DNA of 5,125 nucleotides from a virus (IMGVR_UViG_2698536628_000011), one strand, 5' to 3'. Shown: positions 595 through 5,125, counted from the stretch's first letter. Notes: generated from the sequence alone by a model not told the origin. Program-made: numbers and translations.

Positions 595-795
595 TTAATC
601 TTTCGGATAGATATCCGGTCTTAAGTCAGATTTCGTAATTGCACCTGACGTGCATTGCTCAAGTTTTTTAGCCAGCACAAAACTGGCTTTTTTATAACCA
701 TTGAAAACCAGCCGTAAGTAGCCTGGTGTTGAGCCAACTTTTCCGGCCAACTCGCCCTGCTGTTCTTTGGTTAAAGAGTCCCAATACGCTTTCAT
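595..795 (-). CDS. Cro-like small DNA-binding regulator (YdaS/Cro family), 66 aa
   Basis: Track ORF 595..819 (74 aa). I prefer the internal ATG at 795-793 because GGAGG (complement of 805-809) lies 10 nt upstream of it, whereas the 819 start has no Shine-Dalgarno. Product MKAYWDSLTKEQQGELAGKVGSTPGYLRLVFNGYKKASFVLAKKLEQCTSGAITKSDL has the size and HTH-like character of Cro proteins and is divergent from the repressor gene. Confidence 0.75.
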   Translation of the reverse strand: MKAYWDSLTKEQQGELAGKVGSTPGYLRLVFNGYKKASFVLAKKLEQCTSGAITKSDLRPDIYPKD

Positions 796-885
796 ACAAT
801 ATGTACCTCCAATATACATATTACATGATTAATATGAACCTTCAAGATACTTGTACCTTATCGGTACAAAGGTTTTAATTTCTTT
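796..885. promoter_or_regulatory. Divergent promoter/operator region between Cro-like and CI-like genes (OR-like)
   Basis: 90-bp AT-rich intergenic region. Palindrome TTGTACC-ttatc-GGTACAA at 851-869 (7 of 9 pairs symmetric). Second imperfect palindrome ATGTAcctccaataTACAT at 801-819. Candidate rightward promoter TTGTAC (851-856), 17 bp, TTTAAT (874-879) would start transcription at or near the ATG at 886, giving a leaderless repressor mRNA as for lambda PRM. Candidate leftward promoter on the minus strand TTGAAG (845-840), 16 bp, TAATAT (823-818), upstream of the Cro-like Shine-Dalgarno. Confidence 0.5.
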
Positions 886-1560
886 ATGAAAACAGTCCAT
901 GACATCCGGCGGTCTAACGCCAGAAAACTGAGAGATGGTGTTGGCGGGAATTCTTCCTTTGCCACCATGATTGATCGCGAGCCAACCCAGACCAGCAGGT
1001 TTATGGGAGATGGTGCTACTAAAAATATCGGTGACAGCATGGCACGGCACATCGAAAAATGTTTCGACCTGCCTGTCGGATGGCTTGATCAAGAACACCA
1101 GACCACGAACATCACAAAAAAACCTGATGTTTCAATCACTAACAAACAAATAACGTTAGTCCCTGTCATATCATGGGTACAGGCCGGAGCATGGAAAGAA
1201 GTTGGCTATTCTGAGGTTGATTTGAGCACAGCAGAAACTTATCCCTGCCCTGTACCCTGTGGCGAAATGACTTATATCTTGCGGGTGATTGGTGATTCAA
1301 TGATTGATGAGTACCGCCCGGGAGACATGATTTTTGTTGATCCCGAAGTCCCTGCCTGCCACGGTGACGACGTTATTGCATTGATGCACGATACAGGCGA
1401 AACCACCTTCAAGCGATTGATAGAAGATGGAACACAGCGTTATCTCAAAGCATTAAACCCAAACTGGCCTGAGCCTTACATTAAGATTAACGGTAATTGC
1501 TCTATAATTGGTACAGTAATTTTCTCAGGAAAACCAAGAAGATACAAAATAAAGGCCTAA
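886..1560 (+). CDS. CI-like prophage repressor, LexA/S24 peptidase family (autocleavable), 224 aa
   Basis: Track ORF 886..1560. C-terminal domain carries the S24 signature: Ala100-Gly101 (nt 1183-1188, WVQAGAW) as candidate cleavage site, Ser138 in GDSM (nt 1297-1299), Lys176 in FKRL (nt 1411-1413). Ser-to-Lys spacing of 38 residues is as in LexA and lambda CI. No Shine-Dalgarno upstream, consistent with leaderless translation. Followed by an intrinsic terminator. Confidence 0.9.
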   Translation: MKTVHDIRRSNARKLRDGVGGNSSFATMIDREPTQTSRFMGDGATKNIGDSMARHIEKCFDLPVGWLDQEHQTTNITKKPDVSITNKQITLVPVISWVQAGAWKEVGYSEVDLSTAETYPCPVPCGEMTYILRVIGDSMIDEYRPGDMIFVDPEVPACHGDDVIALMHDTGETTFKRLIEDGTQRYLKALNPNWPEPYIKINGNCSIIGTVIFSGKPRRYKIKA

Positions 1561-1571
1561 TCAATATTTAT

Positions 1572-1595
1572 AACCTGCTTCGGCAGGTTTTTTTA
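1572..1595 (+). terminator. Rho-independent terminator of the repressor gene
   Basis: Stem CCTGC (1574-1578) / GCAGG (1583-1587) with loop TTCG, extendable by A:T pairs, then a run of 7 T (1588-1594), 12 nt after the repressor stop codon. Confidence 0.7.
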
Positions 1596-1598
1596 TAC

Positions 1599-1627
1599 TT
1601 GACAATGTACCCTTGAGATACATAATG
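1599..1627 (+). promoter_or_regulatory. Near-consensus sigma70 promoter pointing rightward, away from the repressor gene (PL-like)
   Basis: TTGACA at 1599-1604 (6/6 consensus), 16-bp spacer, CATAAT at 1621-1626 (5/6 to TATAAT). Predicted start near 1633-1634. Sits immediately after the repressor terminator. Confidence 0.6.
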
Positions 1628-1633: not shown

Positions 1634-2090
1634 AAAGAAACATGCCGCAGGCAAGATTAAACAAAATTTGGTTGTAACACGGCGTATGGCACATGCGTCG
1701 TTAGCGGTCTGGGGACGTTAAAGGGGACAATCCACTCCTTGCTCGGGCAAAAAAACCAGGTAGCCGGAATGTGCAAGTCAATGATGATGCTGATAAGACG
1801 CCTAACCAGCGCGGCGATCCGGTTTGACGCCTGGGAAGAGACCAGGGTGCAACGATGAGGGCATTTATGGAACCGCGACAAAGTGTGGTGCCGTAACTTG
1901 CTAAGTGCTCTCAGCGTTGTGGTAATCCGCGAAATGGCGCGGCGGTAAGTATGGCGGGGTTACTCTTTCCCCGTTGAGGACACCGGATTGTCAGGTTGAC
2001 CATACGCCTGAGTGACAACCCCACCACAACAGCCACTGCTTTGGCGGTACCAGTTTGTACACTTGCTTCCGGCTGGTACCGCTCTTTTTA
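1634..2090 (+). ncRNA. Candidate ~450-nt noncoding transcript or long structured leader
   Basis: Bounded by the promoter at 1599-1627 and a hairpin plus T-tract at 2044-2090. All three plus frames are broken by frequent stops between 1640 and 1980; the longest ATG-initiated frames are about 11-30 codons and lack a Shine-Dalgarno. Local hairpins at about 1829-1845, 1925-1940 and 1954-1972. No Rfam-type family recognised by eye. Could be a decayed pseudogene instead. Confidence 0.3.
2044..2090 (+). terminator. Terminator-like hairpin with U-rich tail (candidate 3' end of the noncoding unit, or an early terminator)
   Basis: 10-bp GC-rich inverted repeat GCGGTACCAG (2044-2053) / CTGGTACCGC (2073-2082) with a 19-nt loop, followed by TCTTTTTA (2083-2090). 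The loop is larger than in canonical terminators. Confidence 0.4.
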
Positions 2091-2159
2091 CAAAACAGAG
2101 AAGAGCATCACCGGACGACGGGCTCATAACCCAATCCAGCCGGGCGGCTGCCACCGCAG

Positions 2160-2285: not shown

Positions 2286-2455
2286 TATGTCAATCGCGGT
2301 GGTCGACTGACTATTCTGCAGGAAGACCAGGGACAATTACTGACTCTTGCCGGTGAACCTGACGGAAAACTCCGCGCAGCAGGTCATTAATATCGTTCTT
2401 AATTAACTGATTATTTATCTCATCACTGAATATCTTTATATAGTGAGGACTTATT

Positions 2456-3280
2456 ATGTCTCAGAACTTAGACGCAACCGCAATTAATCAAATCCATGCC
2501 CTTATTTCTGCTCAGGGTGTTAATGAAATTATCAGTAATATTGGTGCCGATGCTGTGGCATTGCCTGAGAATTTCCGCATTCATGATCTGGAAAAATTTA
2601 ATTTAAATCGCTTCCGTTTCCGTGGTGCGCTTTCCACTGCCAGCATCGATGACTTTACCCGTTATTCTAAAGATCTTGCAGATGAAGGCACCCGCTGCTT
2701 TATCGATGCCGATAATATGCGAGCCGTCAGTGTGCTTAACCTGGGTACTATTGATGAACCAGGTCACGCAGATAACACCGCCACCCTCAAACTGAAAAAG
2801 ACAGCACCGTTTTCTGCTCTGTTGTCTGTTAATGGCGAGCGTAACTCCCAGAAGTCACTGGCAGAATGGATTGAAGACTGGGCCGACTACCTTGTGGGCT
2901 TTGATGCTAATGGTGACACCATTCAGGCAACCAAAGCGGCTGCGGCAGTCCGTAAAATCACAATTGAAGCAAACCAGACCGCTGATTTTGAAGACAATGA
3001 CTTCAGCGGCAAACGCTCCCTGATGGAGTCTGTCGAAGCGAAGACCAAAGACATTATGCCAGTGGCATTTGAATTTAAATGCGTTCCGTTTGAAGGCCTG
3101 AAAGAACGTCCGTTTAAATTACGCCTCAGCATTATCACTGGCGATCGTCCTGTACTGGTTCTGCGCATTATTCAGCTGGAAGCGATGCAGGAAGAAATGG
3201 CTAACGAATTTCGTGATCTGCTTGTTGAGAAATTCAAAGACAGCAAAGTAGAAACCTTTATTGGTACTTTCACCGCCTGA
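2456..3280 (+). CDS. yfdQ: YfdQ-like prophage protein (DUF-type, function unknown), 274 aa
   Basis: Track ORF 2456..3280. Shine-Dalgarno GAGGA at 2445-2449, 6 nt before the ATG. Length and N-terminus ([21 protein letters not shown]) match my recollection of E. coli CPS-53 prophage YfdQ; this is recollection, not a search. AT-rich candidate promoter region directly upstream (about 2400-2440). Confidence 0.85.
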
Positions 3281-3292
3281 TTTCATTACTGC

Positions 3293-3314
3293 AAATGCCC
3301 CTGCGGGGGCATTT
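3293..3314 (+). terminator. Intergenic stem-loop between the yfdQ-like and yfdR-like genes (partial terminator or attenuator, or RNA processing site)
   Basis: Perfect 9-bp stem AAATGCCCC (3293-3301) / GGGGCATTT (3306-3314) with loop TGCG, starting 13 nt after the stop codon. The downstream tract (ATGGAAAC) is only weakly U-rich, so termination is probably partial. Confidence 0.4.
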
Positions 3315-3408
3315 ATGGAAACGTAATTAACTCAATAATCACCGGATGGTGAGAGCTTCCTTTTAGCAGAATTCAGCGCGGTGCAGCGCATATAAAGTGG
3401 AGAACGAA

Positions 3409-3945
3409 ATGTCATTTATTAAAACTTTTTCCGGGAAGCATTTTTATTATGACAAGATAAATAAAGACGACATCGTGATTAACGATATCGCAGTTTCCCT
3501 TTCAAATATCTGTCGCTTTGCAGGACATCTTTCACACTTCTACAGTGTCGCCCAGCATGCGGTGCTTTGCAGCCAGCTGGTGCCGCAGGAATTTGCTTTT
3601 GAAGCGTTAATGCATGATGCAACAGAAGCATATTGCCAGGACATCCCCGCGCCACTGAAACGACTTCTTCCTGACTATAAACGGATGGAAGAAAAAATAG
3701 ACGCCGTAATCCGTGAGAAATACGGGTTACCTCCTGTTATGAGCACGCCAGTGAAATATGCCGATCTCATCATGCTGGCAACCGAACGCCGCGATCTCGG
3801 ACTTGATGATGGCTCTTTCTGGCCTGTATTGGAAGGTATCCCGGCAACAGAGATGTTCAAAGTGATTCCACTGGCACCGGGCCATGCCTACGGGATGTTT
3901 ATGGAACGCTTCAACGAGTTATCGGAATTACGCAAATGTGCATAA
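3409..3945 (+). CDS. yfdR: HD-domain 5'-deoxynucleotidase, YfdR-like, 178 aa
   Basis: Track ORF 3397..3945 begins at a GTG. I prefer ATG at 3409 because GGAGA (3399-3403) lies 5 nt upstream, giving 178 aa starting MSFIKTFSGKHFYYDK. HD signature present: His40, His50 and the His69-Asp70 pair in ALMHDATEAY (nt 3613-3618). Confidence 0.85.
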   Translation: MSFIKTFSGKHFYYDKINKDDIVINDIAVSLSNICRFAGHLSHFYSVAQHAVLCSQLVPQEFAFEALMHDATEAYCQDIPAPLKRLLPDYKRMEEKIDAVIREKYGLPPVMSTPVKYADLIMLATERRDLGLDDGSFWPVLEGIPATEMFKVIPLAPGHAYGMFMERFNELSELRKCA

Positions 3946-4814
3946 CTCATGTAGTTAGTTTTTCTGGCGGGAGAACATCTGCATATCTTGTTCACCTGAT
4001 GGAAGAACAAAGAAAGGCTGGCAATAACGTCTGCTACATCTTTATGGATACCGGTTGCGAACATCCGCTGACATACCGCTTTATTCGGGAGGTTTTGAAG
4101 TTCTGGGGCATACCGCTAACTGTGTTGCAGGTCGATATAAATCCAGAGCTTGGGCAGCCAAATGGTTATACGGAATGGGAACCAAAGGATATTCAGACGC
4201 GAATGCCGGTGCTTAAACCGTTTATGGACATGGTTAAAAAGTACGGTACGCCATACATCGGCGGCGCATTCTGTACTGACAGGCTAAAACTCACCCCTTT
4301 CACGAAATATTGCGATGACCATTTTGGGCGAGGGAATTACATCACATGGCTCGGTATTCGTGCGGACGAACCCCGTAGGCTGAAACCGAAACCTGGCGTC
4401 CGGTATCTTGCCGAGCTGTCAGATTTTGATAAGTCGGATGTTATCCGGTGGTGGCAAAAACAACCTTTTGATTTGCAAATCCCGGAGCACCTCGGGAACT
4501 GTGTTTTTTGCATCAAAAAGTCAACGCAAAAGCTGGGGCTTGCATGTAAAGACGAACCTGGTCTGATGCGGGTTTTTAATGAACTGGTTACAGGCAAACA
4601 CGTCAGGGATGGTCATCGCAGAACAGGTAAAGACGTTATGTACCGTGGTCACCTGACGCTTGACGGGATTGCCAGAATGTATGCCGACAGCGACTACAGA
4701 AGTTTGTATCAGGCGATGGTGCTGGCCAAGCGGTTTGATACTGGTTCGTGTTCCGAATCATGTGAAATCTGGGGTGACCAATTGGAGTTGAAATTCGAAG
4801 AGGTCGTGGCATGA
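3936..4814 (+). CDS. PAPS-reductase-like PP-loop (adenine-nucleotide alpha-hydrolase superfamily) protein, 292 aa
   Basis: Track ORF 3936..4814. N-terminal PP-loop motif SFSGGRTS (residues 8-15, nt 3957-3980). Cysteine pairs C189-x2-C192 (nt 4500-4511) and C272-x3-C276 near the C-terminus. The start overlaps the end of the yfdR-like gene by 10 nt, suggesting translational coupling. Confidence 0.85.
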   Translation: MCITHVVSFSGGRTSAYLVHLMEEQRKAGNNVCYIFMDTGCEHPLTYRFIREVLKFWGIPLTVLQVDINPELGQPNGYTEWEPKDIQTRMPVLKPFMDMVKKYGTPYIGGAFCTDRLKLTPFTKYCDDHFGRGNYITWLGIRADEPRRLKPKPGVRYLAELSDFDKSDVIRWWQKQPFDLQIPEHLGNCVFCIKKSTQKLGLACKDEPGLMRVFNELVTGKHVRDGHRRTGKDVMYRGHLTLDGIARMYADSDYRSLYQAMVLAKRFDTGSCSESCEIWGDQLELKFEEVVA

Positions 4815-5014
4815 CAATCGTAAAAACCCATACCGGTACCGTGATCACCAAAGATGGCCCGCAGGTAAAAAAATTGCACCAAACAGAGCGGATGTGGGTC
4901 GTTGGCAAAAACGAGTTTTACCACAAAGAAACTGGACGCCGCCATTTTGCAGAAAATACGCGCCGCCGACTGCTGTTAGACACCATCAAGCCTATCGAGG
5001 TGAAGCATGTTTAA
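4811..5014 (+). CDS. Small hypothetical protein, 67 aa
   Basis: Track ORF 4811..5014. ATGA start/stop overlap with the preceding gene (4811-4814) and AAGAGGT Shine-Dalgarno at 4799-4805. Basic, lysine/arginine-rich product. No family recognised. Confidence 0.65.
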   Translation: MTIVKTHTGTVITKDGPQVKKLHQTERMWVVGKNEFYHKETGRRHFAENTRRRLLLDTIKPIEVKHV

Positions 5015-5125
5015 ACAGAACGAAAAAGCTATCGCTCAAATTGCTGATTATATCCCGCGTGCGTGCCGGGGTATGCAGTTGCAGGAAGCCAAAGCGCGCC
5101 TGGAGAAAAAAATTGCGCTCTATAT
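5007..5125 (+). CDS. Partial CDS (N-terminal 39 codons, continues beyond window end): hypothetical protein
   Basis: ATG at 5007-5009 preceded by GAGGTG (4997-5002). Overlaps the stop of the upstream ORF by 8 nt (5007-5014). Frame is open to the window end, translating MFKQNEKAIAQIADYIPRACRGMQLQEAKARLEKKIALY. Confidence 0.5.
   Translation, partial: MFKQNEKAIAQIADYIPRACRGMQLQEAKARLEKKIALY

Follow-up and report, generated by a model that had tools for sequence, protein, structure and literature searches.

Positions 2456 to 5125 of the viral DNA stretch IMGVR_UViG_2698536628_000011 (5,125 nucleotides; the whole stretch at its full length is called the window here) carry yfdQ, yfdR, and a gene for a PP-loop protein of the lambda NinC family, followed by two small open reading frames (ORFs). 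We give a probability of about 60% to the reading that this is the promoter-distal part of the pL operon of a lambdoid prophage of the SfV/CPS-53/ST64B type and that its pieces were inherited separately and make up a mosaic instead of a single pathway. The first piece would be yfdP-yfdQ, an apparently obligate two-gene phage cassette that usually heads the early operon or lies among genes for SSB, DEDD exonuclease, and recombinase. The second would be yfdR, encoding a predicted HD phosphohydrolase that accompanies yfdPQ in about three quarters of the prophages of enterobacteria, and the third would be the NinC-family gene with the two small ORFs, an optional cargo block joined exactly at the stop codon of yfdR. 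After induction or infection, the yfdPQR set may restrain initiation of the host chromosome or otherwise divert replication resources to the phage, while NinC may work independently as a counter-defense enzyme against phosphorothioate-based immunity, by analogy with a cassette of a Vibrio phage.

A sequence-only reading had placed three ORFs on the plus strand of this region, and all three are where it put them. The identities that it gave to their products, namely YfdQ-like, HD-domain, and phosphoadenosine phosphosulfate (PAPS)-reductase-like PP-loop proteins, are right according to Pfam and RefSeq. Its assignment of the genes to the early-left position agrees with the repressor gene, terminator, promoter-like site, and divergent cro-like gene that are in place there, and the literature that it referred to, on the binding of DnaA by YfdR and the inhibition of initiation by over-expression of yfdQRST, is as published (PMC4776307). 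However, we do not follow it in treating the three genes as one module, because the NinC homologue is normally located in the nin region of the pR operon and the YfdS of K-12 is unrelated. The constant partner of yfdQ, yfdP, was hidden from that reading by a run of N in the window.

Linkage of the genes across prophages

Three sets of loci were fetched and scored by tblastn. The first comprised 80 E. coli viral contigs with a yfdQ 99 to 100% identical to that of the window; yfdP-yfdQ-yfdR is present in all 80 and the PP-loop gene in 7. The second comprised 74 loci of different species, mostly Enterobacterales, with some from Pseudomonas, Alcanivorax, Limnohabitans, Hydrogenophaga, and Methylibium. 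Here, yfdP lies directly upstream of yfdQ in 72 of the 74 loci and yfdR follows yfdQ in 57, and a PP-loop gene downstream of yfdR was found in none, two loci having one about 7 kb away on the other strand. The third set was chosen for the PP-loop gene itself and comprised 80 contigs with the window-type allele (at least 94% identity). Co-occurrence and gene order across prophages had been proposed in the sequence-only reading as a check on its module; the yfdQ-yfdR part recurs beyond the lineage (57/74), but the PP-loop gene largely fails to follow (0/74 and 7/80). The unit of linkage is yfdP-yfdQ, to which yfdR is a frequent enterobacterial addition, and the PP-loop gene counts as optional cargo, which E. 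coli prophages have repeatedly acquired at this position. In lambda, Salmonella phage Oslo, and Vibrio phage 44E38.1, NinC is found in the nin region or beside NinG.

The homology between the window and the K-12 cryptic prophage CPS-53 ends exactly at the stop codon of yfdR (window 3936-3945; L002 11512-11521), with the next ATG overlapping, and the same stop/start joint leads into unrelated genes in different prophages. The start of ninC overlaps the stop of yfdR by 10 bases, and the starts of the next two ORFs (4811-5014 and 5007 to beyond 5125) each overlap the preceding stop. Because the homology with K-12 stops exactly at the stop codon of yfdR, we take the overlapping yfdR/ninC junction to be a mosaic joint and not evidence of coupling to NinC. 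K-12 YfdS was considered as a remnant of the PP-loop gene and rejected: it is a 120-residue protein of the Ea22/DUF551 type, the two proteins are unrelated, and the homology stops at the yfdR stop.

The yfdP-yfdQ pair

YfdQ (274 residues; 2456-3280, plus strand) matches PF10065 (DUF2303) end to end, over residues 7-272 of 274, with 306.9 bits against a cut-off of 26.6 (E = 1.4e-91), and also matches phrog_210 (E = 1.2e-119). The gene for YfdP, a 120-residue protein of Pfam family PF27127 ('YfdP'), lies immediately upstream on the same strand across a gap of 65 nucleotides; its 3' end is readable in the window at 2286-2390 (plus strand), and the whole gene is annotated by RefSeq at 13729-14091 of the O26 prophage locus (L001). 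The pair is also present in Vibrio phages 44E38.1 and VvAW1, Pseudomonas phage pAN, and Xanthomonas phage Tabio, as well as in five of six distant metagenomic representatives, the sixth being a short contig that starts at yfdQ and is unreadable upstream. The distant pairs usually adjoin genes for SSB, DEDD/RNase T exonuclease, or Erf/YqaJ recombinase. In the Shiga toxin (Stx) phage ArgO145, yfdP-yfdQ stands after SSB within a full Gam/RecT/Exo/SSB module.

Clustering at 50% identity leaves 1,715 representatives of the YfdQ family, each about 270 residues long, and the best 150 include no fusions. A PDB entry entitled 'YfdQ protein' (9o7m) matches the YfdQ of the window with E = 1.5e-44 and contains 36 chains of one sequence; Xanthomonas phage Tabio has a YfdQ (L161 5004-5828) with 94.6% identity to it. 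From these 36 chains, we infer that YfdQ forms a large homo-oligomer. Our literature search found no paper describing 9o7m, and the fold libraries did not return this entry. AlphaFold models of YfdQ (predicted local distance difference test score, 74) and YfdP (score, 78) gave no informative fold match. YfdP had no match in the PDB; hence, no PDB chain, 9o7m included, is detectably similar to it. A relationship between YfdP and YfdQ was also considered and was rejected after profile-profile comparison showed none. A search of the PADLOC defense library gave no matches for YfdP, YfdQ, or YfdR.

YfdR and host replication

The gene yfdR (3409-3945, plus strand; the ORF opens at 3397, and RefSeq takes the ATG at 3409) encodes a 178-residue protein with matches to HD domains, which we describe as an HD-domain phosphohydrolase. 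It matches the HD protein 2gz4 in the PDB (E = 1.9e-13) and phrog_318 (E = 4.5e-110). Its Pfam matches, to PF12917 and PF13023, are sub-threshold, and it stays below the curated cut-offs for YfbR-type enzymes, with 24.2 against 25.9 bits for PF12917 and 19.9 against 122 bits for NF003009, the PRK03826 equivalog. The H...HD...D metal-binding motif of the HD superfamily is present as H50, H69-D70, and D119. Among 93 distinct homologues with 38 to 100% identity, H50, H69, D70, E73, D78, and D119 are each conserved in at least 98%, and because these are metal-binding and catalytic residues, the catalysis of YfdR appears to be under strong purifying selection. YfdR is reported to have a much weaker affinity for nucleotides than YfbR has (Zimmerman 2008, quoted in PMC4776307).

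K-12 YfdP, YfdQ, and YfdR are 99%, 98%, and 99% identical to the proteins of the window, and the results of Noguchi and Katayama therefore apply to the yfdQ and yfdR found here. Purified YfdR binds to domain I of DnaA in a Phe46-dependent manner and competes moderately with DiaA and DnaB (PMC4776307). In K-12, multicopy yfdQ and yfdR together with one small downstream gene, either yfdS or yfdT, block initiation at oriC (PMC4776307). Since K-12 YfdS is unrelated to the PP-loop protein, the data on DnaA and on the inhibition of replication cover only yfdQ and yfdR among the genes of the window. The complete K-12 cluster of yfdQ-yfdR-yfdS-yfdT is not what the window holds: yfdQ and yfdR are 98 to 99% identical, yfdS is absent, and yfdT is represented by a trace only, a DUF551 pseudogene beyond the window (L001 17275-17400) that matches the first 42 residues of YfdT with 81% identity.

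The NinC-family PP-loop protein

The PP-loop protein (292 residues; 3936-4814, plus strand) is 78.7% identical to lambda NinC over residues 2-292, as found by tblastn of phage genomes. Lambda NinC, annotated between ninB and ninD in the pR operon, is non-essential, and our literature search on NinC returned only data on this non-essentiality and no functional study. The match to PF01507 (PAPS_reduct) covers only residues 5-72 of the protein and the N-terminal third of the family, and the PP-loop reads SFSGGRTS. Across 22 homologues, the motifs SxSGGRxS, DTGxEH, and W.G.R.DE, the cysteines C113 and C126, the GNCxFC motif (C189, C192), and a C-terminal C..CE are invariant, and the conserved cysteines may bind an iron-sulfur cluster or zinc.

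The resemblance to SspD and DndC suggested by the sequence-only reading is seen in the PADLOC library, where SspD is the best match (E = 2.9e-15), followed by BrxP and DndC (E of about 5e-4). The SspD alignment is partial, covering residues 5-148 against profile positions 2-121 of 277, and no ssp genes adjoin; we take this as kinship of fold and not as membership of an Ssp system. As a DndC, the protein reaches 14.8 bits for TIGR03183 against a cut-off of 290.4, and there are no dnd genes in the 30-kb neighborhood. Assimilatory reductases of PAPS or adenosine phosphosulfate (CysH) were rejected as an assignment, the score for NF002537 being 19.4 bits against 154 and the C terminus reading GSCSESCE, without ECGLH. 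The PP-loop is of the canonical form SGGxxS, and the CysH structure aligns SSSFGIQ at the same position. Both the canonical PP-loop and the missing ECGLH motif point away from a PAPS reductase and suggest that the NinC-family protein is an adenylating ATP-pyrophosphatase akin to DndC and SspD.

NinC-family domains occur in natural fusions to Dam-type N6-adenine methyltransferases (PF01507 with PF05869, in P0203, P0207, P0238, and P0239), which suggests that the protein acts on DNA. One of these fusions is p0018 of Vibrio phage 44E38.1 (P0203). When p0018 and its neighbor p0019 were moved into a sensitive phage, growth on a Dnd-carrying host was obtained (Piel et al., 10.1101/2021.05.05.442762), and this work is cited in a paper of 2026 for a phage PAPS reductase that promotes Dnd evasion. 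The window protein has the PAPS-domain homology to such phage anti-Dnd proteins, with 56% identity to the N-terminal PAPS domain of p0018 over 96% of its length, and a counter-defense activity is putative.

Evaluation of the mosaic reading and its alternatives

Several points weigh against the mosaic reading and the roles that we propose with it. The replication phenotype was obtained by multicopy over-expression in K-12, and its authors concede that it may be an artefact; yfdP was dispensable for the block, and deletion of yfdQRST left initiation unchanged (PMC4776307). The phenotype also needed K-12 yfdS or yfdT, neither of which is in the window. Moreover, yfdPQ is found without yfdR in 23% of the loci and in the majority of the distant phages, and the core cassette must therefore have a function independent of YfdR. 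The window-type NinC allele, for its part, is highly linked to yfdPQ: of the 80 contigs in the third set, at least 70 carry it on the downstream side of yfdPQ, including 11 with the ArgO145-type yfdPQ, whose YfdQ is only 52% identical to that of the window. Finally, the tested Vibrio cassette consisted of two genes, with the PAPS domain in fusion with a methylase (10.1101/2021.05.05.442762). In the ArgO145-type loci, yfdR is replaced between yfdQ and NinC by a gene for a 147-residue protein without a Pfam domain (gp22, L162 6899-7342), and orf67, the first of the two small ORFs, co-occurs with NinC in both the window-type and the ArgO145-type contexts. We assign a small probability to a functional tie behind the high linkage of the window NinC allele to yfdPQ in E. 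coli.

It has also to be considered that yfdP-yfdQ, with or without yfdR, serves mainly in counter-defense, as a decoy, sponge, or nuclease inhibitor, the effect on DnaA being a side effect of over-expression. The pair often comes first in the early operon, the usual place of anti-defense genes, and has methylases, NinC, and other variable cargo among its neighbors; an assembly of 36 YfdQ chains would fit a sponge or cage, and the unchanged initiation in the deletion strain is as expected from such a side effect. The Vibrio pair lies within a 5.7-kb region that differs between retron-escaping and non-escaping phages, but the escape mutations map to an exonuclease and not to yfdP-yfdQ (10.1101/2021.05.05.442762). 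The order and sequence of the pair are far more conserved than those of typical anti-defense cargo, neither PADLOC nor a known anti-defense fold was matched, and no experiment ties the pair to defense systems. We regard this explanation as unlikely, although it is the alternative that survives best.

A further proposal is that yfdP-yfdQ is an unrecognised accessory of recombination or replication, for example, an ssDNA-binding or end-protecting factor working with SSB and the exonuclease. Such a role would account for the DEDD, YqaJ, Erf, or RecT genes that adjoin the pair along with SSB in the ArgO145, Vibrio, Pseudomonas, and Xanthomonas phages, and large rings or filaments such as the 36 chains of 9o7m might represent are typical of annealing proteins. 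Strains lacking yfdQ are reported to be sensitive to methyl methanesulfonate and H2O2, according to work quoted in PMC4776307. However, the pair co-occurs with complete Rec modules, and a role as a recombinase has been judged unlikely (PMC12315714); we consider this explanation quite improbable.

The view that a single module is made up of YfdQ, the HD nucleotidase, and the PP-loop enzyme, in which, for example, YfdR dephosphorylates or reshapes a nucleotide pool and the PP-loop enzyme modifies phage DNA with the product, has in its favor that the three successive ORF overlaps are compatible with translational coupling, that the window-type NinC allele nearly always follows yfdPQ(R) in two divergent yfdPQ lineages, that HD hydrolases clearing canonical nucleotides accompany DNA-modification genes in other phages, and that YfdR has a weak PHROG match to the dATP triphosphohydrolase family, but it is very improbable given that NinC is missing after yfdR in all 74 species loci and present in only 7 of the 80 near-identical E. 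coli contigs, that lambda has NinC without yfdQ or yfdR, that Vibrio phage 44E38.1 has the two families on opposite genome arms, that K-12 has an unrelated gene behind the same stop/start overlap, and that the gene between yfdQ and NinC in ArgO145 is not yfdR.

The mosaic of separately inherited pieces thus remains our preferred reading, and it can be extended to a joint proposal of three parts. In this proposal, YfdP and YfdQ would form an obligate and widespread early-phage complex around a very large YfdQ oligomer, with a new action on host initiation or defense to which a catalytically active YfdR would add DnaA targeting in enterobacterial phages; NinC would be a DNA-directed PP-loop enzyme that blinds phosphorothioate-sensing immunity; and a three-way-junction RNA upstream of yfdP would be a cis-acting leader of a new class, belonging to lambdoid phages that lack N and serving as a processive antiterminator or as an element controlled by RNase III. 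That all three parts hold together is doubtful, and we offer the combination as a tentative one.

The DNA, the gene names, the yfdP/Q/R cluster (PMC12315714), and NinC were already on record. The genes are common: 58% of complete E. coli genomes have part of the stretch, and Shiga toxin phages share its early-left arm; therefore, any real function would bear on the takeover or protection of hosts by many prophages. The unit worth studying is yfdP-yfdQ, which is constant across about 1,700 protein clusters and for which a 36-chain structure entry exists.

A structured leader RNA upstream of yfdP

Directly 5' of yfdP lies a leader RNA of about 105 to 130 nucleotides, the DNA of which is 80 to 93% identical across genera in which YfdP is only about 55 to 75% identical. 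Its 5' part occupies 2084-2159 (plus strand) of the window and the remainder falls under the run of N, the element being at L001 13586-13689. The predicted fold is a 22-bp helix closing two inner hairpins, that is, a three-way junction, in which one hairpin is of variable length. Covariation is seen as compensatory changes in 12 of 31 pairs given by RNAalifold. In a trimmed alignment, 97.5% of the cells were paired, compared with at most 57.5% with slid partners, and 10 pairs were changed on both sides; the observed values were reached in none of 500 shuffles. A covariance model of the leader gave one match per locus, always just 5' of yfdP and on the plus strand, with 90 to 120 bits, and weaker matches in Serratia, Yersinia, and Proteus. 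An Rfam search of the window and of the unmasked leader returned no family, and the model found nothing credible in the early region of HK022, which was searched for comparison with the put RNAs.

A boxA-like sequence, CGCTCTTTTTACAA, at 2080-2093 is overlapped by the 5' strand of the long helix. In the RefSeq annotation, there is no N homologue in the prophage region, and the related phage LLS has been reported to lack N, with a put-like mechanism proposed for it (PMC12315714). The leader RNA could therefore be an antitermination signal or a leader element of the RNase III type. We put this forward as a lead, separate from the protein genes and small, on how terminators are read through in lambdoid phages that have no N protein.

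Between the pL-like promoter and the structured RNA, there is a GC-rich leader of about 450 nucleotides (1627-2083; L001 13129-13585) with no convincing ORF. Blocks of it are kept elsewhere: one of 37 to 38 nucleotides is 97% identical in Kosakonia, and one of 277 nucleotides is 75% identical in Erwinia.

The prophage locus and its immunity region

The chromosome of E. coli O26:H11 strain 11368 is 100% identical to window positions 2286-5125, and its genes are already annotated by RefSeq as yfdP, yfdQ, yfdR, 'phosphoadenosine phosphosulfate reductase family protein', and hypothetical proteins. There they belong to a lambdoid prophage, with the immunity region on one side and the integrase on the other. 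Of 5426 complete E. coli genomes, 3131 (58%) contain at least a part of the stretch and 272 contain all of it. The run of 126 N at 2160-2285 stands for 325 real bases (L001 13662-13986, from blastn of the window against L001), and window coordinates past it are consequently offset by 199 bases from the real sequence. What is masked is the leader RNA's 3' part, the ribosome-binding site, and 258 bases from the start of yfdP.

Upstream, a cro-like YdaS/HTH gene (ymfT in RefSeq; 595-819, minus strand), with a weak Pfam match to YdaS_toxin/HTH_3, marks the divergent pR side of the immunity region. It is followed by the gene for a cI-like repressor of the LexA family with an S24 peptidase domain (ymfK in RefSeq; 886-1560, plus strand; PF00717, E = 1.5e-26). 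On the 3' side of the repressor gene, a terminator scan found a hairpin with a T-run resembling an intrinsic terminator (1572-1589, plus strand; L001 13074-13091). A putative pL-like sigma-70 promoter, TTGACA-16-CATAAT, follows at 1599-1626 (plus strand); it agrees with the consensus at 11 of 12 positions, no other site in 5.5 kb does as well, and it is presumably the start of the early-left operon. With the repressor upstream and co-directional, a promoter-like site of its own, and an integrase gene 2 to 5 kb downstream in L001, the arrangement appears to be that of a lambdoid early-left (pL) operon. The predicted order is pL, a leader of about 600 nucleotides, yfdP, yfdQ, yfdR, the PP-loop gene, orf67, orf79, and an Ea22-like gene, and then towards int.

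Within the operon, a GC-rich hairpin, AAATGCCCC-TGCG-GGGGCATTT, at 3293-3314 (plus strand) was read from the sequence; it is without a T-run and was not flagged by the terminator scan. It sits in the 128-nucleotide spacer between yfdQ and yfdR. At most other enterobacterial loci, yfdR starts about 60 to 145 nucleotides past the end of yfdQ. The 67-residue ORF (4811-5014, plus strand), which travels with the NinC block, belongs to phrog_1226 (E = 1.9e-42), and the 79-residue ORF (5007-5125, plus strand) belongs to phrog_1344 (E = 8.7e-52); the first 39 codons of the latter are in the window, and it continues past the window end (RefSeq coding sequence L001 16708-16947).

The immunity region carries gene names of the e14 type (ymfL, ymfT, and ymfK), and the early-left arm is of the CPS-53/SfV type. 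The meeting of an e14-type immunity region (1-1560) with a CPS-53/SfV-type arm (2286-3945) is a further sign of lambdoid mosaicism within a window of 5 kb. In the O26 prophage, a phage Dam is encoded by a gene of its own in the pR operon (L001 8174-8827).

Comparison with known systems

Like the nutL/N-leader of lambda and the put RNAs of HK022, the leader RNA described here is a cis element between pL and the first gene, with a boxA-like sequence here. It differs from them in its shape, in which a 22-bp helix closes a three-way junction in place of two stem-loops set side by side, and in being a single copy per prophage region, about 480 nucleotides from the promoter.

The PP-loop protein has the PAPS-reductase fold, an intact PP-loop, and conserved cysteines in common with DndC and SspD. 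However, it is matched by them over its N-terminal half only and far under the curated cut-offs, and the dndA/B/D/E or sspA/B/C partners of those systems are not in the neighborhood of the window prophage. Lambda NinC (ORF-290 of the nin region) is homologous over its full length and has the same PP-loop and cysteine motifs, but it is encoded in the pR operon, whereas the copy in the window stands in the pL operon after yfdR. The p0018 gene of Vibrio phage 44E38.1 is likewise a phage accessory gene, and the same phage has the yfdP-yfdQ pair. In p0018, a Dam methylase is joined to the PAPS domain, the gene neighbors NinG on the other arm of the genome, and ahead of it is a DUF6475 gene that went along in the transfer, whereas the window protein stands alone.

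The HD 5'-deoxynucleotidases, such as E. coli YfbR and the PHROG family of deoxyribonucleoside 5'-monophosphate phosphatases, have the same H...HD...D site and catalytic Glu as YfdR, which differs from YfbR in scoring below the Pfam and NCBIfam cut-offs and in its extra DnaA-binding activity. The cryptic prophage CPS-53 (KpLE1) of K-12 has yfdP-yfdQ-yfdR in the same order and with the same spacing as in the window. The repressor, the promoter, and most of the leader that the window prophage has are missing from CPS-53, and its yfdR is followed by yfdS (Ea22/DUF551 type) and yfdT, whereas in the window yfdR is followed by the NinC-family gene and two small ORFs.

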